A stretch of DNA of 64,000 nucleotides, taken from the NCBI GenBank assembly GCA_048538275.1, contig JBLYPW010000001.1, positions 113,248-177,247 on the forward strand. The letters run 5' to 3'. Source of the stretch: Candidatus Komeilibacteria bacterium (GTDB lineage Bacteria; Patescibacteriota; Patescibacteriia; UBA1558). A model generated the notes under the pieces. It searched no databases. It had not been told where the DNA came from and saw nothing but the letters and a program-made list of their open reading frames with translations. Both the position numbers and the translations under genes were made by a program. Below are positions 1 through 35,431 of this stretch, in pieces (position 1 is the stretch's first letter; the number at the start of each line of letters is the position of its first letter).

Positions 1-44
1 GACCACATCGTAAGTGCATAAAAAATCCAAAAATTTTGAAATTG

Positions 45-215
45 TAAATTGGCGGTGTTTTTTGATTGATGTTCGAACTTTTTTTGAGCAAAATCCGAAC
101 TCCGAATTTTAAAATCCAATCGCTCGGGCGGGCAAAAAGGAAGGGGGTTGGGGGGAAGGAATTTTTGCCCGCCCTCGCTTTCCGATTCCAATTTGTTTCC
201 GCCGCCGAATTTCGT
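45..215. repeat. att-like site: 10-bp core aaattggcgg (46-55) followed by ~160-bp arm A (56-215); inverted copy of 4277-4446
   Basis: The reverse complement of 56-215 matches 4277-4436 almost base for base. The core decamer recurs at 4437-4446 (rc) and 6177-6186. Confidence 0.8.
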
Positions 216-238
216 GCCAACGAAGTTGGCGCGCCACA

Positions 239-1540
239 TTATTTCTCTTTCTGAATAAAATCTACCAATGCTTCCCTATCTACAATTTTTTCATTTCTCA
301 TAGCAAGATTCTTTAATTTGAACATTTTTGTCTTCACTTCTTCATCGCCAATACAAATGATAAAAGGTATACTTTGCTTTTCTGCGGTTTTAATTTGTGC
401 AGGAATTTTTCTGTTGGTGTAATCAACAGCAACATTTATACCTTGTTTTCGAAGATAACCTACCAGTTCATCTGTAAACTGATCAAATTCCTCTTTCAGA
501 CGACAAATGTAAAGCTTGGTAGTGGATTGATATTTTGGTAGCAAGTCATAAGTTTCTATATAATCACGAATGGTTACATCGCCCATACCAAATCCAACGC
601 CCGGAACTTTTTCAGCACCGAAAATTGCCACCAAATCATCATAACGTCCACCGCCAAATAGTGAACGGTTATTTATAGGATTTGTATCAAACACTTCAAA
701 AACTGTTCCAGTATAGTAATCAAAACCGCGTATCAACGAAGGATCAAAAATATAATTTTTGATTTTCTTTTCTAAAAGAAGTTTTTGAAGTGTTTGTAAT
801 TCTTTTACCCCAATATTTTCTGAAAATTCCTTTGGTATTTCAGAAATTTTTTTGCAATCCAAAAACTTGATCAATTTGTTAGTTCTATCACCCAAAAATT
901 TTTCGGCTTGTAAAATAAATTCTTTTGCTTCGATTTTTTCTTTCTTATCAATCAGCTTGGTTAATTGATAACCGCTTTCTTTTTCTAAACCAAAATAATC
1001 ATTAACTAAGTAATTAATTAGTTTTCTACTATTAAGGCGAATAATGAAGTTTTCATCTTTTGCGCCAAAAGTCCGCATAACATCATAAGCGACAGAAATA
1101 ATTTCTGCGTCCGCTTCAACATTATCAATGCCAAAAAGATCAACATTAAGTTGCCAATGTTCGCGCAATCGTCCGCGTTGCGGTCTTTCATAACGAAAAA
1201 GATTTGGTATTGAATACCACCGCAAAGGAAATGATAATCCTTTTCTTTTATGAGCAATCATACGGGCGATTGTTGGGGTCATTTCTGGTCGTATGGTTAC
1301 ATCTCTGTTGCCTCGATCAATGAAAGAATAAGTTTGTTCGTTTACTATTTCCGAGCCAGTTTTTGCACGATAAATTGCGGTTTCTTCCAAAATTGAAGCT
1401 CCGTATTCAACATAGCCATATTGCTCAACCACTTTTCGCATTGTTGAGAAAATATAGTTTTGCACACCCATATCTTCTGGATAAAAATCCCTCGTTCCAC
1501 GATATGGTTCTGTTGATAGTTTTTGAGAATTATTTTTCAT
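239..1540 (-). CDS. hisS: histidyl-tRNA synthetase (class II aaRS)
   Basis: Motif 2 FRYERPQRGRLREHWQ, motif 3 GGGRYDDL, N-terminal RGTRDFYPED, C-terminal anticodon-binding region; 433 aa. Confidence 0.9.
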   Translation of the reverse strand: MKNNSQKLSTEPYRGTRDFYPEDMGVQNYIFSTMRKVVEQYGYVEYGASILEETAIYRAKTGSEIVNEQTYSFIDRGNRDVTIRPEMTPTIARMIAHKRKGLSFPLRWYSIPNLFRYERPQRGRLREHWQLNVDLFGIDNVEADAEIISVAYDVMRTFGAKDENFIIRLNSRKLINYLVNDYFGLEKESGYQLTKLIDKKEKIEAKEFILQAEKFLGDRTNKLIKFLDCKKISEIPKEFSENIGVKELQTLQKLLLEKKIKNYIFDPSLIRGFDYYTGTVFEVFDTNPINNRSLFGGGRYDDLVAIFGAEKVPGVGFGMGDVTIRDYIETYDLLPKYQSTTKLYICRLKEEFDQFTDELVGYLRKQGINVAVDYTNRKIPAQIKTAEKQSIPFIICIGDEEVKTKMFKLKNLAMRNEKIVDREALVDFIQKEK

Positions 1541-1550
1541 ATAAAATCTT

Positions 1551-2867
1551 TTAACCCTGATGTGTTTTTAATTTTTTGGAAAAAGAATAAAAGTCATCTA
1601 TTTTTATTATATTTTTCTTTCGTCCAATATTAATTTCAGCCATGTAATTGTTATAAAAATTATTTTTAAGAAGAATAAAAACCTTAAATTTTTTTATATT
1701 ATCAGGTTTTTCTCTTATATCTATTTCCGCGACATGTCCTTCTTTCCTTAAAGCATTAACTAATTTTATCACCATTTTATAATCTTTCTTCGGGTTCTCG
1801 CAAGAAACGAATACGCCAGGTTTTTTGGAGGGTAAATTTAAAAGTTTACATTCTTTCAGTTTTTCCATAGTCCCCATATAACCAAATCCAAAACCTATCG
1901 CTGGCAAATTCCTTTCCCCATACATGCTTATTAACCAATCATATCTTCCTCCCCCTGATAACGCACCTAGTTTTTTATTTTTATCAGAAACCTCAAATAT
2001 TATTCCCGTGTAAAAAGAGCCTCGAGCTATTGATAAATCAAGTCTACACATATCGTAAATACCATACCATTTTAAAATCTTTGAAATCTGGGTGAATCTT
2101 TTTAAAATTTGATCGGATTGTTTTGCTATATTTTTATTAACTTGCTTTATCTTTTGTATACAATTGATAATTGACCCGTTTAAGGAAATCATCTTGTATA
2201 TAAAAACAATTTGTTTTTTGGTTAAACCAATGTATTCAAATCTGCTATAAAATTCTTTTTTGCTAATTTTTTCTTTATCATCCACTATTTTAACCGCAGT
2301 ATAACAATCATCTGGTTTCACGCCTGCGAAGAATAAGATATTTTCTAAGAGTTTCCTGTCATTAATACTTATTTCCACTTCTTTGCCCAAACCAAGATTT
2401 TTATAAAGATTTGCGGCACACGCCAATATCTCGGCATCTGCCTCAACGGTATCACGTCCTATTATATCTATATCTGTCTGCCAAAATTCTTTTGCTCTAT
2501 CATTTTTAATTTTATCTTCCTGTCTCCATCGTTTAGATGTATCGTACCAACGAATCGGTAATTCAATTTTTTTTAATTCTTGCACCATCCTAGCTCTCGT
2601 TGGAGTTTGTTCCGGGATAAGTGTAAGATAGTTTTTTTGATTATCAAAAAAACTAAATGTCTGGCTGATTAACCCCTCCGACCAAGGAGGTTTAACTTCA
2701 TACAAACTCCTTCTTTCTATAGATGGGGCACTTATCCTTTCAAAACCGAAGCTCTCTATAGTTTTTTCAACTATATTTTGAACATGCTGCCATTTTATCC
2801 ATTCATCAGGATATATACTTTTAAAACCGTTAATTGATTTTAGATTATTATTACTATTCATGCTCAT
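1551..2867 (-). CDS. HisRS-like paralog with degenerate catalytic motif 2
   Basis: The HisRS fold is recognisable (GGGRYDWL, TLIPEQTPTRARM), but motif 2 reads RWRQEDKIKNDRAKEFWQ rather than the FRYERPQ.GR consensus. Sits tandem to hisS. Confidence 0.7.
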   Translation of the reverse strand: MSMNSNNNLKSINGFKSIYPDEWIKWQHVQNIVEKTIESFGFERISAPSIERRSLYEVKPPWSEGLISQTFSFFDNQKNYLTLIPEQTPTRARMVQELKKIELPIRWYDTSKRWRQEDKIKNDRAKEFWQTDIDIIGRDTVEADAEILACAANLYKNLGLGKEVEISINDRKLLENILFFAGVKPDDCYTAVKIVDDKEKISKKEFYSRFEYIGLTKKQIVFIYKMISLNGSIINCIQKIKQVNKNIAKQSDQILKRFTQISKILKWYGIYDMCRLDLSIARGSFYTGIIFEVSDKNKKLGALSGGGRYDWLISMYGERNLPAIGFGFGYMGTMEKLKECKLLNLPSKKPGVFVSCENPKKDYKMVIKLVNALRKEGHVAEIDIREKPDNIKKFKVFILLKNNFYNNYMAEINIGRKKNIIKIDDFYSFSKKLKTHQG

Positions 2868-3882
2868 GGAATAACTTGATTTTTTTCATAAAATTAACAA
2901 TTTTTTCGTTATTCTCTTTTTTAATTAAGTACCGACCAATAAGAGAAACGATAATCATGCCGGTTACAACTTTCCATCTATAACCAGCATATATATTCCA
3001 AATTTTTGCCATACCAAGCTCCATAAGATATGGCCAAGTAATAATGGCTGTAAGGGCGATAATTAATCCTGTCGTTTTTCCAGCACCAATTTTTTTGGTT
3101 AGGTATTGCATAGCGACAGTCGCACTTCCTATAGTAGAAACTGCTAATGCAAAAATAACAACTAAAAGTAAGATGCCTAAAAACAAAGTTGGTTTAAAAA
3201 ATAAGCCAGTTAGTACAACAAAAGTCATGTATAATCCAAACCAAAAACCACCCCAAAGACTGAGTCTTATTTGGTTTTCTTTTTGCTCAAACCTTTGCCA
3301 CATCATAGGATCGGTGAACACTCCGGTTATAATACCTAATAATCCTAAGGGGAATACCCACTTAATCCCAGCTTCTGTTATGAGCTGTAAATTGGGGTTA
3401 ATCGTAAAATTACTTATTATAATAGAAGAAACTGCCAGCAAGACAACCGCAGAAATTTGTAAAGAATAGTATCCTAAATCAGATAAAACACTTCCTCTTA
3501 AGCCATATTTATAAATAAATAATAAAATAGCTAAAGATAAAAATATAATGGAAGGCACGCTAAAACTATTATCTATAAAATGAAAAGACGCCACATCATG
3601 ACCGCCCCCTAATCCTATAAGTAGGGCCTGCATATTCATAATGATGGCCATCGCCGCAATAAATAATGAAAATAAAATTAAAGGAATAAAATTGATCCAT
3701 TTCTCAAACCCTCTAATTTTTACTTTCATGTAGCCAAATAATGGCATAGCCAAGATATTACCAATAACCCAAACAAGGGCTGGAACTATACCATAAGTAT
3801 ACATAAAAGCTATTGTTGCTATCATGCTTACACCCCAAGACCACGAAGCGCCAAGGCTTATTCCAACTCTGCGGTAACTCAT
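2854..3882 (-). CDS. polytopic integral membrane protein, unknown function
   Basis: About 9-10 hydrophobic helices in the translation; overlaps the upstream gene by 14 nt. Confidence 0.5.
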   Translation of the reverse strand: MSYRRVGISLGASWSWGVSMIATIAFMYTYGIVPALVWVIGNILAMPLFGYMKVKIRGFEKWINFIPLILFSLFIAAMAIIMNMQALLIGLGGGHDVASFHFIDNSFSVPSIIFLSLAILLFIYKYGLRGSVLSDLGYYSLQISAVVLLAVSSIIISNFTINPNLQLITEAGIKWVFPLGLLGIITGVFTDPMMWQRFEQKENQIRLSLWGGFWFGLYMTFVVLTGLFFKPTLFLGILLLVVIFALAVSTIGSATVAMQYLTKKIGAGKTTGLIIALTAIITWPYLMELGMAKIWNIYAGYRWKVVTGMIIVSLIGRYLIKKENNEKIVNFMKKIKLFHEHE

Positions 3883-3951
3883 TTCTGTTATGTTGTCTTG
3901 ACTGTCTTTTCTTTTAAAAAGCTTTTCTAAAATTATATTTTTTTAAAATTA

Positions 3952-4158
3952 TTATTTTATTAAGTCCTCAATTGAAACGCCCAGCGCTTTGGCAATTTCT
4001 GCCATAGTTTGAACACTCGGCTTATTAACTGTTCCACTTTCGACCTTCATAAGCGTTGTATATTTAATATCCGCTTTCTTGGCTAAATCATCTTGGGTTA
4101 AGCCAAGTTTGACACGCATTTTTTTGATATTTTCACTAATTATTTTTCCACTTGTCAT
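3952..4158 (-). CDS. XRE-family helix-turn-helix transcriptional regulator
   Basis: LGLTQDDLAKKADIKYTTLMKVESG...IAKALGVSIEDL is a typical Cro/C1 HTH; 68 aa. Confidence 0.75.
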   Translation of the reverse strand: MTSGKIISENIKKMRVKLGLTQDDLAKKADIKYTTLMKVESGTVNKPSVQTMAEIAKALGVSIEDLIK

Positions 4159-4276
4159 ATAAATAAAGTTTTGGTAGTATTATAGTATATAAGGTTATTA
4201 CCCTTATTGTTATACTACCAAATAAAATGAAAATAATCAAACAAATTTATTGGCGGCGCATTTCGCAAAGCGAAAT

Positions 4277-4566
4277 ACGAAATTCGGCGGCGGAAACAAA
4301 TTGGAATCGGAAAGCGAGGGCGGGCAAAAATTCCTTCCCCCCAACCCCCTTCCTTTTTGCCCGCCCGAGCGATTGGATTTTAAAATTCGGAGTTCGGATT
4401 TTGCTCAAAAAAAGTTCGAACATCAATCAAAAAACACCGCCAATTTTCACTTTTTGTGAAATCGTAAGAAACAGCCTCGGCGCAAAGCGCCTCGGCATGG
4501 TATTTTTCCGCAATTTTGAAGTCATTTTTGAAATCCAAAACCAAAGTGCGGTCGGCAATACGGAAA
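4277..4566. repeat. internal inverted att-like site: arm A (4277-4436) - core (4437-4446) - arm B (4447-4566)
   Basis: Arm A is the reverse complement of 56-215. Arm B is the reverse complement of 6058-6177 and, on the minus strand, encodes the recombinase C-terminal peptide SNFRIADRTLVLDFKNDFKIAEKYHAEALCAEAVSYDFTKSENW. Confidence 0.8.
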
Positions 4567-4684
4567 TTCGCCGTGCAAAGCACGGGCAAAATGAAATTTT
4601 GCAAACCAATCTTTTTTCTTTCGCTTTCAGCGAAAGGTTGAGCGTATTTTTCTTTGATTGCCCAAAAACTAATTTCAAAACAAT

Positions 4685-6250
4685 ATGGACAACATAAATT
4701 TACAAACCAAAAAGATTTTTCTCTATGCTCGTAAATCCACGGACGAACCCGAAAGGCAGGTTTTGAGCATTGAAGCGCAAATGTTTGAGTTGCGGGAATT
4801 TGCCAAAAAAGAGGGTTTGAATATCGTCCGTGAATTTGTGGAAAGCAAAACCGCCAAAGAACCAGGCAGAGAGATTTTTAATGACATGATCGCAAGCATA
4901 GAGAAAAATGAAGCCGAAGGAATTTTAGCGTGGCACCCTGACCGCCTTGCTCGTAATTCCATAGACGGCGGACGAATAATTTATTTGGTGGATACTGGAA
5001 AAATTACCACGCTAAAATTTCCCACTTTTTGGTTTGATCCGACACCGCAGGGAAAATTTATGTTATCCATTGCTTTTGGGCAATCAAAATATTATGTGGA
5101 TAATCTTTCGGAAAACATAAAGAGGGGTATTCGCCAGAAATTGCGAAATGGAATATGGCCCGCTTGGGCGCCACTTGGCTATATAAACGACAAAAACGCC
5201 CGCTGTATCGCCGTGGATAAAGAAAATGCAAAGTATATCAAGCGGGCATTTGAAATGTACGCGACTGGCGAATACCCCCTCGCTCAAATCCGAAAGATTA
5301 TCAATTCCTTGGGCTTGGTTGGCAAGAAAGGCAAAAAGCTTTCCGTCTCAAATTATCAGTATATGCTCAAGAATAAAATCTATTATGGAATGATTGAATA
5401 TAACGGTGAAATGTATGACGGAAAGCATGAACCGATTATCACAAAGAAACTTTTTGATTCCGTTCAAGAAGTGATGGCGAACAAGAGCAAACCAAAATCG
5501 CCAAAACTCAAACCTTATGTTTTTAGAGGATTTTTCCGTTGTGGAGAGTGCGGTTGTTTCATTACTACCGAAACACAAAAAGGACACAATTATTTGCGTT
5601 GCACCAAACGGAAAAATCCTTGCACACAAAAATATGTCCGCGAGGAAATCATCACTTCTCAAATAAAGGAAGAAATCAAAAAAGTTTCTTTGTCTTCCGC
5701 TTGGGCAAACGCTTCAATCAATTATTTTGAAAATGAAAAAATGAAAATTGCCCAAGCGGAAAGCTCTTTCGCCCAAAAAGCGAGAGATGAGCTTGTGGAA
5801 ATAGAAACAAAGCTTGATCGTTTGCTTGATTTACAACTGGACGGCAATTTGTCGCAAGCGGAATATACCGCTAAAAAGCACAAGCTCATTCTCGCTAAAA
5901 AAGATATGGAAGAAAAAATCACCGCTTTTGGGCGAAAGAGCAATAATCGGTTCGAACTTGCCATTGCCTTTCTAAAAGAAGCCAATCAAGCCGAAAAATA
6001 CGCTCAACAAGAAAATCCCGAAAGGATTCGGGATTTTCTCAAAAAGATTGGTTCGAACTTCCGTATTGCCGACCGCACTTTGGTTTTGGATTTCAAAAAT
6101 GACTTCAAAATTGCGGAAAAATACCATGCCGAGGCGCTTTGCGCCGAGGCTGTTTCTTACGATTTCACAAAAAGTGAAAATTGGCGGAGGAGGCGGGATT
6201 CGAACCCGCGATACCTTGCGGTATGCCTGCACTCCAAGCAGGTGCACTAG
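4685..6250 (+). CDS. large serine recombinase (resolvase/invertase N-domain + recombinase domain + zinc ribbon)
   Basis: N-terminal YARKSTDEPERQVLSIEAQ (catalytic Ser region), recombinase domain, CGECG..C zinc ribbon. The 3' end runs through repeat B into tRNA-Ser antisense. Confidence 0.85.
   Translation: MDNINLQTKKIFLYARKSTDEPERQVLSIEAQMFELREFAKKEGLNIVREFVESKTAKEPGREIFNDMIASIEKNEAEGILAWHPDRLARNSIDGGRIIYLVDTGKITTLKFPTFWFDPTPQGKFMLSIAFGQSKYYVDNLSENIKRGIRQKLRNGIWPAWAPLGYINDKNARCIAVDKENAKYIKRAFEMYATGEYPLAQIRKIINSLGLVGKKGKKLSVSNYQYMLKNKIYYGMIEYNGEMYDGKHEPIITKKLFDSVQEVMANKSKPKSPKLKPYVFRGFFRCGECGCFITTETQKGHNYLRCTKRKNPCTQKYVREEIITSQIKEEIKKVSLSSAWANASINYFENEKMKIAQAESSFAQKARDELVEIETKLDRLLDLQLDGNLSQAEYTAKKHKLILAKKDMEEKITAFGRKSNNRFELAIAFLKEANQAEKYAQQENPERIRDFLKKIGSNFRIADRTLVLDFKNDFKIAEKYHAEALCAEAVSYDFTKSENWRRRRDSNPRYLAVCLHSKQVH
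6058..6186. repeat. arm B plus core aaattggcgg directly abutting the tRNA-Ser 3' end (attR-like)
   Basis: Reverse complement of 4437-4566; the core overlaps the tRNA acceptor 3' strand. Confidence 0.8.
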
Positions 6251-6269
6251 ACCACTATGCGACCCCTCC
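6182..6269 (-). tRNA. tRNA-Ser (anticodon GGA), class II with long variable arm, CCA encoded
   Basis: rc = GGAGGGGTCGCATAGTGGTCTAGTGCACCTGCTTGGAGTGCAGG...GCGGGTTCGAATCCCGCCTCCTCCGCCA. Manual fold gives a 7-bp acceptor stem, anticodon loop TTGGAGT, variable hairpin and T-loop TTCGAAT. Confidence 0.85.
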
Positions 6270-6333
6270 GCAGGGAATAATACTTTTAAAAACGTTAGAA
6301 TTATAGCAAAATGCGAAGAAAAATCAAGTCTTA

Positions 6334-7020
6334 TTAATTCTTCGCCAGTACCAGCGCCCAGACTGCTCGGGCGTTGTTTTGTTTGAGTAGTTTAGCTTGT
6401 TCATCAAGCGTGGCGCCGGTGGTAATAACGTCGTCTATTAAAATGATAGTTTGATCGGCTAGGTCAATATTTTTACTAATACTAAAGCTATTAGCGACAT
6501 TGATCAGGCGTTGCTGGCGATTGAGGTTGGCCTGATGATCATTGTATTTTTTACGGTGGAGAATATTTGTTTTGACTGGTATTTTCAGCGCTAAACCAAA
6601 ATGATTTGCCAGTAGCTCAGCTTGGTTAAAGCCGCGTTCATTATAACGTCGGCGATGTAAGGGTGTAGGGATAATCAAACAATTATCTGGCATGTCTATA
6701 TTTTGGTATCGTTGGATTAATAATTGTGCCAGCGGCACGGCCAACTGAGAATGGTATTGGTATTTGAAGGCGTGAATCACTTTATCTAAACCACCATCCA
6801 GATAAGTAGCGCTGACTAGAATTTTGTCCAACGATGTTTGGTTGGCACAGGCAGTGCATAAAATTTGTTGATCTTGAGCTTTATCGCAGAGCGGGCAGAT
6901 AAGGGGGCGTTTTTTAATTTTATACTGACAATCATCACACCAATTGGTATTGTTTTGTCCACAAACAGCGCAAGTAGGCGGAAATAGCCAGTGAATAAGG
7001 TAAGCGAGTGGATTGAACAT
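6334..7020 (-). CDS. comF: ComF-family protein (zinc finger + phosphoribosyltransferase domain)
   Basis: N-terminal CAVCG...CDDC and CPLC..C cysteine pairs; PRTase motif IILIDDVITTGATL. Confidence 0.8.
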   Translation of the reverse strand: MFNPLAYLIHWLFPPTCAVCGQNNTNWCDDCQYKIKKRPLICPLCDKAQDQQILCTACANQTSLDKILVSATYLDGGLDKVIHAFKYQYHSQLAVPLAQLLIQRYQNIDMPDNCLIIPTPLHRRRYNERGFNQAELLANHFGLALKIPVKTNILHRKKYNDHQANLNRQQRLINVANSFSISKNIDLADQTIILIDDVITTGATLDEQAKLLKQNNARAVWALVLAKN

Positions 7021-24316: not shown

Positions 24317-24410
24317 TGGCGGAGAGAGAGGGATTCGAACCCTCGCGCCGGCTAAACACCGACCTAACGGTTTAGCAAACCGTCCCCTTCAGCCGCTTGG
24401 GTATCTCTCC
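24317..24410 (-). tRNA. tRNA-Ser (anticodon GCU), class II, CCA encoded
   Basis: rc = GGAGAGATACCCAAGCGGCTGAAGGGGACGGTTTGCTAAACCGT...GAGGGTTCGAATCCCTCTCTCTCCGCCA. Anticodon loop TTGCTAA; long variable arm. Confidence 0.85.
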
Positions 24411-24939: not shown

Positions 24940-25029
24940 TGGCGGAGAGGGTGGGATTCGAACCCACGGAACCCGTGAAGGTTCAACAGTTTTCAAGACT
25001 GTCGCATTCGACCACTCTGCCACCTCTCC
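24940..25029 (-). tRNA. tRNA-Ser (anticodon UGA), class II, CCA encoded
   Basis: rc = GGAGAGGTGGCAGAGTGGTCGAATGCGACAGTCTTGAAAACTGTTGAACCTTCACGGGTTCCGTGGGTTCGAATCCCACCCTCTCCGCCA. Confidence 0.85.
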
Positions 25030-33808: not shown

Positions 33809-33883
33809 TCCGCGGTAGCTCAGCGGTAGAGCAGTTGACTGTTAATCAATTGGTCGTCGGTTCGAATCCGACCCGCGGAGCCA
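33809..33883 (+). tRNA. tRNA-Asn (anticodon GUU), CCA encoded
   Basis: TCCGCGG acceptor pairing with CCGCGGA; anticodon stem GTTGA/TCAAT with loop CTGTTAA; T-loop TTCGAAT. Confidence 0.85.
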
Positions 33884-35431
33884 TGTGAGACGAAGCGAGT
33901 TTAATGACTCGTTTTTTCTCTTATCTAAGCCATTTTCATGTAGTTCAAAAGTGGAATTTAGACGAGGCATCCATTTAAGTAAAAATTCAAAAGACGGTGT
34001 GCATTTTGTAGCTAGTTTAAGGTCTTTTAATTCAAAGTTCAAAAATATTTCACTTAAAATTTCTCTTTTCATTTCTGTGCTTGTTTTAGGATTTAAATAA
34101 TCTTTTTTAGCATTGAAAGCCAAATCGTGAATAGCGACAGCTTCTTTGTAAAAGTCTATAGTATTGTCATTTAGTTTTTTAATCTTTTTCTTGATTAATT
34201 TTTCAGTTGCTGAATACTCCTCAAACTTTTTATTATAAAATTCAAGAGTTATGTTTTTGTCTATTTTATCCTCATAAATAGATTCTAGCCTTTGTTCTGT
34301 TTTCTTAAGTTCAATATTATAAGTTTTCATTTGTGTTTCTTTGTATTCTTTTTGATCGGCAAAACTATCTTTTAAGTTTTTTTCAAGCCAATTTAAAACC
34401 CTTTCATTTTGAGGTGAAATCTTATCAAACAAAGGTAGTATCATTTCTTCCAAATCTTCCTGTCTAATATACTTTTTTTGAGAACAAGGTTTATATCTAT
34501 TACAATAGCCATACCAATGGCCTTTTTGTTTTGCCCATGTTATTGTTCCGCCACATTCACCACATTTTATTTTACCTTTAAATACTGGTAGGTGTTTGCT
34601 ATATCGTGGAGCATTAATCTGTCTTGTGATTTTACTTTGCACTTTATCAAACAATTCCTCGGTTATTATAGCCTTTTGTTTGCCTTGATATATTTTATTA
34701 TTCCACCTTAATTTGCCACAATAGAAAGGTTCTAATAAAAAACGGTGCATAGAGCTTTTGCCAACAGCTTTACCATTTCTTGACCTCAGTCCTTTGTCAT
34801 ACATAACTTCACATAGCTTTTTAAGCGAATAATTGCCTGTAGAATAAAGTTTAAACATTATTTTGATATATGGAGCCACTTCGTCATTTATGACGTGTAT
34901 TTTGTGTCCTTTTTCGCCTATGGTTTTGTAGCCAATCGGTGGTTTTGTTGGTAGCCAGCCCTCTTCAATTTTAGCTTTTTGTCCCTTTTTAACTTCTTCA
35001 CTTAAATTGTCTATATAGTTTTTTGCAAATAAAATTCTAATACCCCAATTAAGCTTTTCTTGTGATCTGGAGTCTTTATGCATAATGAGGCTATCTTTAA
35101 CTAGGTGAACTTTTCGCTCGCCGTCTTGTTTGAGCCAACTGTCAACTGCAACCATATCTTTAAAGTTTCTAGTTAAGCGGTCAGCTTTTTCACAAACAAT
35201 AATCTTGAGTTTTTTATCTTTTATATATTTCAACATCTCACCGAATTTATCTCGTTGTTTTTCGCCGCTTGCACTTTCAGATATTTTAAAAATCTTTTCA
35301 ATTACTAATTCTTTTTTATAACAATATTCTTTCAAGTATTTTTCTTGAGCAGGCAAAGAATATCCAGTTTCTTCTTGTTCTTTACTAGATACTCGACAAA
35401 ATATTATACATTTTTGTTTATTGTTTTCCAT
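33842..35431 (-). CDS. large serine recombinase (integrase of the inovirus-like element)
   Basis: N-terminal IIFCRVSSKEQEETGYSLPAQ (catalytic Ser), recombinase domain, CGECGG..C zinc ribbon. The C-terminal SDSNRRPID is encoded antisense to the tRNA-Asn T-arm (the tRNA extends from position 33842 to 33883). Confidence 0.85.
   Translation of the reverse strand: MENNKQKCIIFCRVSSKEQEETGYSLPAQEKYLKEYCYKKELVIEKIFKISESASGEKQRDKFGEMLKYIKDKKLKIIVCEKADRLTRNFKDMVAVDSWLKQDGERKVHLVKDSLIMHKDSRSQEKLNWGIRILFAKNYIDNLSEEVKKGQKAKIEEGWLPTKPPIGYKTIGEKGHKIHVINDEVAPYIKIMFKLYSTGNYSLKKLCEVMYDKGLRSRNGKAVGKSSMHRFLLEPFYCGKLRWNNKIYQGKQKAIITEELFDKVQSKITRQINAPRYSKHLPVFKGKIKCGECGGTITWAKQKGHWYGYCNRYKPCSQKKYIRQEDLEEMILPLFDKISPQNERVLNWLEKNLKDSFADQKEYKETQMKTYNIELKKTEQRLESIYEDKIDKNITLEFYNKKFEEYSATEKLIKKKIKKLNDNTIDFYKEAVAIHDLAFNAKKDYLNPKTSTEMKREILSEIFLNFELKDLKLATKCTPSFEFLLKWMPRLNSTFELHENGLDKRKNESLNSLRLTWLRGSDSNRRPID

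Follow-up and report, generated by a model that had tools for sequence, protein, structure and literature searches.

We found that positions 46–6187 of a 64-kb window of Candidatus Komeilibacteria contig JBLYPW010000001.1 (the window being the whole stretch of DNA that was analyzed) are probably one integrated mobile element of ~6.1 kb, inserted next to a tRNA-Ser(GGA) gene by its own large serine recombinase (LSR) in an attP × attB reaction, and that its free form would have carried two inverted copies of attP. By comparison with 116 loci collected for this analysis (designated by L-numbers), the element is a member of a large and apparently undescribed family in Patescibacteria (Candidate Phyla Radiation, CPR) and Elusimicrobia. 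No description of this family or of a conserved internal inverted attP was found in a literature search, which was incomplete, so the novelty is unproven.

The anatomy of the element is solid. A repeat search of the window gave two inverted pairs, I1 (39–215 and 4277–4453, 177 nt, 99% identity) and I2 (4437–4570 and 6054–6187, 134 nt, 99% identity), which overlapped at 4437–4453. By BLAST, arm A was identical at 160 of 160 positions (56–215 against the reverse complement of 4277–4436) and arm B at 123 of 124 (6054–6177 against the reverse complement of 4447–4570), and the 64-kb window contained no further copy of either arm. A 10-nt core, aaattggcgg, was present at 46–55, at 4437–4446 as the reverse complement, and at 6178–6187; the first and third copies form the direct repeat at both ends by which an island is recognized. 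A 30-nt probe of core plus arm A matched at the two arm A junctions only, with 0 matches expected in shuffled sequences. Thus, the repeats at three core junctions, with arms of about 160 and 120 bp, and the two segments each bounded by inverted sites that the original prediction had described were all recovered; its coordinates needed corrections of a few bases only (4566 to 4570 and 6058 to 6054). The overall architecture was X/core/A-cargo-A'/core'/B'-LSR-B/core/tRNA, where X is the host flank, which had no similarity to arm B outside the core, and only one LSR gene was present inside the element. The third core copy covered the last 6 nt of the tRNA-Ser(gga) gene (6182–6269, minus strand), that is, the acceptor end with CCA, and ARAGORN and Rfam found this tRNA intact despite the insertion at its 3' end. 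The only known RNA family detected in window 1–7000 was tRNA, and a scan of promoters and terminators gave no signal above background.

We then compared the junctions by aligning all three from 22 loci. In this alignment, attR read B/..TTGGCGG/AGAGGG-GGGATTCGAACC (tRNA), the internal site read backwards was B/..GGCGG/TGTTTTTTGATTGATGTTCGAAC (arm A), and attL was X/(G)CGG/arm A. These results supported the earlier proposal that the outer junctions are the attL (X/core/A) and attR (B/core/tRNA) of an LSR element at the tRNA 3' end and that attP has the form B/core/A, with arm B encoding the last ~41 LSR codons; together with the repeat search, they also confirmed the intact inverted attP that had been noticed inside the element. 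X differed in every genome, often with only CGG or GCGG common to the other two sites, and the stretch that attL had in common with attP and attR varied from 3 to 19 nt across loci, the shortest being CGG; because X often shared only CGG or GCGG, we placed the crossover in CGG, at the acceptor end plus discriminator. In a census of spacing, the motif TTYGAA lay 11 nt from GGCGG at 43/43 tRNA junctions and 16 nt from it at 53 of the 58 arm A junctions, and the 5-nt shift of the motif recurred in the divergent subfamilies L063 and L075. In serine integrases whose structures have been studied, half-sites of the attB and attP types reportedly differ by such a 5-bp offset, and the half-sites found here, as far as their sequences allow this to be judged, fit the logic of LSRs. 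A palindromic central dinucleotide (CG) that abolishes orientation control was ruled out, since the tRNA was always joined to B and X always to A. Unoccupied tRNA-Ser genes, including two in the window (24317–24410 and 24940–25029), had a terminator hairpin directly at the CCA end, and the X flanks of other loci were genome-specific terminator-like hairpins of the same kind; because of this resemblance, 46–6187 is best read as one insertion between the tRNA and its terminator. The two unoccupied genes of the window (gct and tga) had the same 3' end, TGGCGG/AGAG...TTCGAA, as the occupied tRNA-Ser(gga), and are potential further targets of the LSR. If this reading holds, the LSR would recognize the T-arm and acceptor 3' end that all tRNA-Ser isoacceptors share.

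The same organization recurred widely. Relatives of the LSR numbered in the thousands, many of them >85% identical, of variable C-terminal length, and located on ~2-kb contigs. Two NCBI assemblies reached via close homologs both showed the cargo, the helix-turn-helix (HTH) gene, a divergent LSR, and then tRNA-Ser, with both inverted-repeat pairs present, and in one of them a 1.06-Mb contig carried two elements of this type, each at a tRNA-Ser gene of its own. When one genome per species was scanned, 80 loci were obtained, and self-BLAST was used to score their repeats: an inverted repeat of ~134 nt bracketed the LSR in >50 copies from independent assemblies, its distal arm touching a tRNA 3' end, which belonged to tRNA-Ser with any anticodon and rarely to tRNA-Gln or tRNA-Asp, and a second inverted repeat of 156–420 nt bracketed the cargo and abutted the LSR pair in 23 loci with enough upstream sequence. 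Identity of the LSR was 88–96% in many Patescibacteria classes and 58–63% in Elusimicrobia. The bins that contained the LSRs of 88–96% identity (L004–L055) were labelled as many CPR classes and a few non-CPR phyla; such identity across classes would imply very recent spread, and some of the bin labels are probably wrong. A phage origin was considered and rejected, as IMG/VR gave one distant (58%) LSR only, in an uninformative context. Arm A was described from an alignment of the arms of 21 loci. In the window, a GC-rich hairpin module with a 13-bp stem (GGGCGGGCAAAAA...TTTTTGCCCGCCC) was located at 113–187 and 4305–4379, only in the copies of arm A, and related arms at other loci differed in having from one to several of these modules, hence their lengths of 156–420 nt. 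The hairpin with GCGCC beside the proximal arm was also conserved in other loci in the arm alignment.

This recurrence makes it scarcely credible that the arrangement arose in this contig alone, as an artefact of assembly or through a chance nested or dimeric insertion. What speaks for an error is that the window starts just 45 nt left of the first repeat and that assemblers err at inverted repeats. However, the same architecture was present in dozens of assemblies that had been produced independently and by different assemblers, within contigs of 0.2–1 Mb, and the arm pairs of several loci were only 75–91% identical, too divergent for repeat collapse, which is therefore excluded as the cause in those loci. 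The nested or dimeric integration that the original prediction had offered as one reading is contradicted by the single LSR gene and by the finding that the arrangement is the conserved standard of the whole family; on the two points by which that prediction could have fallen, the repeats are no artefact and the relatives carry the LSR.

The integration mechanism is well supported, and we proposed that it proceeds as follows. The LSR would place the element downstream of the tRNA-Ser(GGA) 3' end and ahead of the terminator of this tRNA, recombining an attB of the form (terminator flank X)/CGG/(tRNA acceptor end plus T-arm) with an attP of the form B/CGG/A, in which B would be the end of the LSR's own gene. 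The crossover would fall within the CGG of the acceptor end and discriminator, and the element would supply TTGGCGG, so that the tRNA 3' end, including CCA, would be rebuilt. Because the outer junctions correspond to the two products of one attP × attB event, the donor would already have held the internal inverted attP. The free form would therefore be a circle that carries the ~300-bp B-core-A sequence twice, in inverted orientation, dividing the LSR from the cargo. The element comprises two modules, each bracketed by inverted copies of one attP arm (A-cargo-A' and B'-LSR-B); since each module has one bracketing arm pair, a complete second attP sits inverted between the divergent promoters of the LSR and of the HTH-cargo operon. 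Integration may be possible through either attP copy, with the one at the LSR 3' end serving in the great majority of cases, and gene conversion would keep the two copies alike. Flipping either module leaves the junction types unchanged, so both are potentially invertible, and either could invert or be replaced without loss of a site. The cargo slot would turn over fast, usually holding restriction-modification or defence genes and here a host operon with hisS. The features of the element are listed in table 1.

Table 1. Features of the integrated element and its borders, numbered from the first letter of the window
Feature	Position	Strand	Basis or remark
X, host flank left of the element	1–45		Presumed native sequence downstream of tRNA-Ser(GGA); 45 nt visible, window begins here
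Core copy 1 (aaattggcgg), attL junction	46–55	+	Crossover inferred within CGG at 53–55
Arm A, distal copy; attP-type right half-site (TGTTTTTTGATTGATGTTCGAAC), then GC-rich hairpin module 113–187	56–215	+	TTCGAA 16 nt from core
Conserved hairpin + GCGCC (GCCAACGAAGTTGGC GCGCC), 3' end of cargo operon	216–238	-	Read from sequence; arm alignment
hisS, genuine histidine-tRNA ligase, cargo	239–1540	-	TIGR00442; Pfam tRNA-synt_His + HGTP_anticodon
HisRS paralog, cargo	1551–2867	-	Scores under hisS and hisZ cut-offs
Membrane protein, family unassigned; first gene of conserved three-gene operon, cargo	2854–3882	-	Synteny with both HisRS genes in L111–L116
HTH_3 (XRE-type) regulator, backbone gene heading cargo operon	3952–4158	-	Pfam HTH_3, E = 1.8e-15
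Putative promoter/operator region of HTH-cargo operon; hairpin ATTTCGC-AAA-GCGAAAT + GCGCC at arm boundary	4159–4276	-	Sequence reading; promoter assignment inferred
Arm A', proximal inverted copy of arm A	4277–4436	-	Repeat search; BLAST
Core copy 2 (ccgccaattt), centre of internal inverted attP (A'/core'/B')	4437–4446	-	Repeat search; junction alignment
Arm B', inverted copy of the recombinase's last ~41 codons	4447–4570	-	123/124 against reverse complement of 6054–6177
LSR leader/promoter region, degenerate continuation of inverted copy, two small hairpins inserted	4571–4684	+	tblastn
Large serine recombinase (LSR), 521 aa as integrated	4685–6250	+	Pfam Resolvase, Recombinase, Zn_ribbon_recom
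Arm B, attP-type left half-site, within LSR 3' end	6054–6177	+	Repeat search; BLAST
Core copy 3, attR junction	6178–6187	+	Sequence; junction alignment
tRNA-Ser(GGA), attB-type right half-site, T-arm TTCGAA 11 nt from core	6182–6269	-	ARAGORN; Rfam 53.7 bits; spacing census

The internal attP sits in the ~520-bp divergent intergenic region between the LSR and the HTH-cargo operon, and no decayed internal attP was found in any locus examined. Within a locus, B and B' shared private single-nucleotide polymorphisms (SNPs), and the arms A and B were found to evolve in concert. In roughly 15–20% of loci, B and B' were different but intact alleles, and each differing allele was the 3' end of some other LSR lineage; an attempt to tell site-specific from homologous flipping by the 'cognate' B allele failed, since alleles were reshuffled among LSR lineages. 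One alternative is that the internal attP is mainly regulatory, a high-affinity operator or insulator for the LSR between divergent promoters, as res is between tnpA and tnpR in Tn3, and that the identity of the arms and the flips are by-products of RecA-dependent gene conversion. The constant position of the site in the intergenic region, the derivation of the LSR leader itself from the inverted copy, the private SNPs common to the arms, which gene conversion predicts, and the strong hairpin of arm A, which could insulate or terminate transcription, are all consistent with such a role. However, an operator needs ~50 bp rather than 134 plus 160–420 bp, the locus L086 (below) indicates that the internal copy can serve as an integration site, and the loci in which B' is a different intact allele point to exchange rather than conversion; we therefore regarded a mainly regulatory site as unlikely. 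Among the possible reasons why a second attP is kept, we would rank a second integration site or a pivot for module inversion and exchange first, and a recombinase operator after these. The conserved internal inverted attP makes the LSR gene and the cargo both bracketed, flippable units.

The orientation of the modules was strongly biased. The HTH gene adjoined the LSR and was divergent from it in 19/21 loci, with one locus flipped (L039) and one ambiguous, and the LSR 3' end abutted the tRNA in 44 of the 46 loci in which this was scored, the other two meeting the arm of a second element. In L039, the cargo was flipped along with its conserved end hairpins, and the hairpin of the 216–238 type lay at the opposite arm. 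In L086 (a 543-kb contig), the whole element was reversed and read tRNA-Ser(gga)/B'-LSR-B/core/A-cargo 3' end, with the LSR pointing away from the tRNA; because its B arms differed at 19/134 positions and matched exactly over no more than 33 nt in a row, L086 is not a repeat-collapse mis-join. L013, an element in the usual orientation, occupies the same tRNA, and its chromosomal flank and that of L086 were 80% identical. A single integration event via the other attP copy is enough to account for L086, which is the only alternative orientation secure against assembly ambiguity. In L037, as in L086, the tRNA was upstream of the LSR, and 26 loci with the pattern 'LSR 3' end - B - core - arm A' were retrieved in a scan of JGI metagenomes; at least 9 of these had the LSR co-directional with the HTH gene. 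The variants L039, L086, and L037 are differences between genomes. The palindrome at the left flank of L039 (2090–2160) was a separate observation: the host flank left of attL formed a perfect palindrome, and ahead of it lay a 24-nt inverted copy of the core with the tRNA-Ser 3' end, so that a short inverted repeat brackets the whole L039 element.

These variants bear on a programmed inversion switch, in which the recombinase module, the cargo module, or both are flipped by the LSR acting alone or together with a partner. The purpose proposed for it would be control of LSR expression, as the LSR is convergent with a strongly transcribed tRNA in the usual orientation and would lie downstream of the tRNA and upstream of the HTH-cargo operon when flipped. 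Both segments do have perfect inverted bounding sites, every junction survives a flip, and alternative orientations do occur (L039; L037 and L086; several JGI contigs with the LSR co-directional with the HTH gene). On the other hand, independent assemblies agreed in orientation to ~95%, mis-joins at collapsed repeats could account for most flipped examples, and the reversal of both modules in L086 is more simply obtained by a single integration via the other attP. To our knowledge, no LSR recombines attP with attP or attP with attR, and the cargo promoter moves with the cargo, so that a cargo flip alters nothing obvious. The active switch that had been suggested from the sequence was not supported, and flips were rare; evidence for actual inversion is thin, and we treated the switch as a rival that is decidedly unlikely.

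Several loci departed from the single-element plan. With R for the recombinase module and C for the cargo module, we observed the arrays R-C-R-tRNA (L023), C-R followed by the arm of another element (L011, L090), and C-R-C (L087); repeated integration into a regenerated attR would give the arrays of the L023 and L011/L090 types. The L090 contig (4515 nt), which begins and ends in arm A, was considered as an excised circle and then classed as a tandem array, since the arm at its end differs in sequence type from its own arms. At L022:9661–11596, the LSR module had a tRNA-Ser(gga) gene on each side. The two genes were 100% identical and inverted relative to each other, their outer flanks differed, and the B arms of the module were different alleles; this arrangement could be the product of a double-site exchange or of inversion via the internal attP. 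At L111:6242–11100, and also in L112, the cargo of the window was present at 82% nucleotide identity over 2.7 kb with the HTH gene and A arms, adjoining tRNA-Lys(ttt) and without an LSR. In L111, the inverted repeat did not stop at arm A but also took in the terminator hairpin and 22 nt of the tRNA-Lys 3' end, copied in inverted orientation. The L111 contig comes from ENA sample ERZ27247363, which also contains a fragment 100% identical to window 208–1589; a 1.4-kb fragment identical to that interval was the sole match in an exact look-up of hisS, and exact-protein look-ups for ComF, ClpB, the LSR, and the HisRS paralog gave no match. In L033 (1737–2189), a solo arm B remnant was observed at a second copy of tRNA-Ser(gct), beside an occupied tRNA-Ser(gct) and a tRNA-Ser(tga), and resembles what earlier insertions and a tRNA duplication would leave behind.

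Such loci could suggest two separately mobile units side by side, namely an insertion sequence-like LSR unit with 134-bp terminal inverted repeats and a nonautonomous cargo unit with repeats of 160–420 bp that is mobilized in trans. This would account for the many contigs of ~1.8–2.2 kb with the LSR and its repeats only, for the LSR module alone between two tRNA-Ser genes in L022, for the solo cargo module with the same HisRS operon at tRNA-Lys in L111/L112, and for the C-R-C and R-C-R-tRNA arrays. However, serine recombinases excise only between direct repeats, so a segment between inverted sites cannot leave as a unit; short LSR-only contigs are typical assembler output at repeats; X/core/A and B/core/tRNA are the halves of one attP × attB event; and the extension of the L111 repeat into the flank suggests secondary rearrangement or gene conversion rather than insertion. 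We considered two such units to be very improbable.

A single integrated element with two inverted attP copies remained the best explanation, and several observations weigh against it. We searched for empty sites by BLAST of the X flanks (1.2 kb) of 21 loci and the right flanks of all loci against all loci; only L013 and L086 were related, and both were occupied. An empty attB (X-core-tRNA), which the original prediction had proposed to seek in relatives, was thus found in none of the 116 loci, and no excised circle was found among them. The solo modules (the L111 cargo without an LSR and the L022 LSR alone) are not predicted by a simple single-unit model. The flipped-LSR contigs whose arms are identical over at least 100 nt are what is expected from mis-joins of a collapsed repeat, and the strong orientation bias means that inversion is rare or counter-selected. 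Finally, flipping by the LSR would break the attP × attB rule, and RecA could explain both the flips and the identity of the arms.

The recombinase gene is itself part of the attachment site. Its open reading frame (ORF) traverses arm B and the core and ends in the tRNA in antisense, and the residues after ~501 are tRNA-derived. The catalytic domain (PF00239) occupied residues 12–157 (E = 7e-20), followed by PF07508 (180–266) and the zinc ribbon PF13408 (280–332), both above gathering scores. Compared by sequence with solved structures, the catalytic domain alone aligned (3guv and 3g13, resolvase family), and the best NCBIfam similarities were to CcrB and XisF, all scores being far under the family cut-offs. 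An IS607-type enzyme was rejected by the LSR-type domain order and an IS607 model score of 25 bits against a cut-off of 110, and a small serine invertase of the Hin/Gin/Cin type by the length of 521 aa with recombinase and zinc-ribbon domains. By tblastn, 4679–4437 matched LSR residues 423–501, and the homology of this upstream copy to LSR codons ~423–456 resumed past a two-hairpin insertion and continued nearly to the start codon. The upstream copy of the LSR 3' end is, to judge by this match, older and longer than the identical 134 nt. The two stem-loops of the leader (4571–4684) were inserted exactly within GGTT^CGAAC, at the same place in L002, L005, and L053–L072, and the insertion point was kept between Patescibacteria and Elusimicrobia subfamilies that are only ~60% identical. 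An imperfect inverted repeat of 37 nt (4631–4667 and 5074–5110, 73% complementary) had one copy in the LSR leader and the other in the coding region ~400 nt downstream, also in L002 and L003; this could be an mRNA structure or merely two conserved sequences. We rejected arm B' as a separately translated mini-protein (ORF 4380–4604), which had no convincing start codon or ribosome-binding site. LSRs act on attP × attB in one direction and depend on a directionality factor for the reverse reaction; the HTH protein and the small ORFs of the arms are candidates for such a factor. A second, unrelated LSR (529 aa, 29% identity) was observed in the window at 33842–35431 on the minus strand; its ORF enters the 3' end of a tRNA-Asn (33809–33883, plus strand) by ~42 nt, and, lacking surrounding inverted repeats, it represents a simpler element of this general type that the genome also carries.

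The cargo was diverse across the family. Among the 64 cargo proteins of 22 loci, most belonged to restriction-modification and other defence systems (methyltransferases, ResIII, NgoPII, GmrSD, and AbiEii-like proteins), and an HTH homolog was present at the same position in 19/21 loci. No replication gene was present in the element or among these 64 proteins, and all family copies found were integrated. In the window, hisS scored 358.8 bits with TIGR00442 (cut-off 286.75); the HisRS paralog, which is 31% identical to hisS and has no detected anticodon-binding domain, belongs to a small Patescibacteria clade; and the membrane protein had no Pfam or NCBIfam match. The membrane protein, HisRS paralog, and hisS formed an ordinary chromosomal operon in L114–L116 (L114:6904–10736), without arms, HTH gene, or LSR; because the three-gene operon is native and arm-less in those loci, the cargo of the window is a captured host operon. 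No other hisS was found within the 64-kb window, and the mobile cassette may here contain an essential gene.

Taken together, if the proposed integration holds, the family would be a very widespread vehicle of gene exchange in CPR/Patescibacteria, whose mobile elements are poorly known, one LSR would have several targets per genome and targets in many phyla, and the capture of an operon with a genuine hisS would place an essential gene in a mobile cassette, in a family whose cargo is mostly anti-phage defence. A far-reaching extension, which we considered speculative and unlikely, is that the element is a natural cassette-shuffling platform, in which the LSR itself flips and exchanges modules at the cores, against the rule of attP × attB only, integrates via either attP, and recombines the internal attP with other tRNA-Ser genes; it would then be a system like the 2-micron plasmid or like recombinase-mediated cassette exchange that spreads defence cassettes, even hisS, across CPR and rearranges chromosomes. 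The site logic, B/CGG/A against X/CGG/tRNA with a 5-bp offset, is explicit enough for direct in vitro testing.

The element resembles known LSR elements and integrases (phiC31, Bxb1, Listeria A118/LI integrase, SCCmec CcrAB/CcrC, XisF, and SpoIVCA) in its set of Resolvase, Recombinase, and zinc-ribbon domains, in the short core with attP and attB half-sites offset by 5 bp, and in the restored 3' end of the target gene, and SCC composite islands show a similar tandem accretion at a regenerated site. In contrast to these elements, attP lies inside the recombinase ORF, a second inverted attP is conserved family-wide with the LSR and the cargo bracketed by 134–420-bp inverted repeats, and insertion is targeted to a 3' end that all tRNA-Ser isoacceptors have in common. 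The Cin/C segment of P1, with ~0.6-kb repeats, and Gin/G of Mu use small invertases that carry a C-terminal HTH, depend on Fis and an enhancer, and switch the ends of tail-fibre genes rather than serve as integrases. These segments are likewise unique sequences in long coding inverted repeats, with the crossover at the outer repeat edge and an adjacent serine recombinase gene, but here the enzyme is an LSR, its gene lies inside the bracketed segment, the orientation is strongly biased, and flipping rewires no gene except for the last ~20 codons of the recombinase. In the yeast 2-micron plasmid, the Flp/FRT system, a tyrosine recombinase with identical sites in 599-bp inverted repeats, flips a replicating molecule for copy-number amplification. 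The circle that we propose would similarly be split into two unique regions by an inverted repeat with a central recombinase target, one region encoding the recombinase, whereas the present element showed neither a replication gene nor an origin and lives in the integrated state. TnpX/TndX transposons excise to a circle from directly repeated dinucleotide ends and have no long terminal inverted repeats, unlike the long repeats found here, and the small serine recombinase of IS607, which has an N-terminal HTH, shows little specificity for its target, whereas the target here is strictly a tRNA 3' end.

In mycobacteriophages with integration-dependent immunity, attP lies within a gene of the element. 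As in these phages and in the archaeal elements with SSV/pTN3-type integrases, integration changes the end of an element-encoded ORF, and tRNA genes are the targets; however, the SSV/pTN3-type enzymes are tyrosine recombinases whose gene is split rather than given a new tail, and those elements have no internal inverted attP. The pTN3 integrase has been reported to drive chromosomal inversions between tRNA-related sites (PMC5495485). The conserved inverted-attP architecture also mirrors the engineered landing pads with inverted attP sites for phiC31 cassette exchange, such as MiMIC, which allow replacement in either orientation (PMC4379497). Both place a cassette between two inverted attP sites of an LSR, but the pads are man-made and are served by donors with two inverted attB sites; no natural donor of this kind was identified here, and L022 alone resembles the product of such an exchange.

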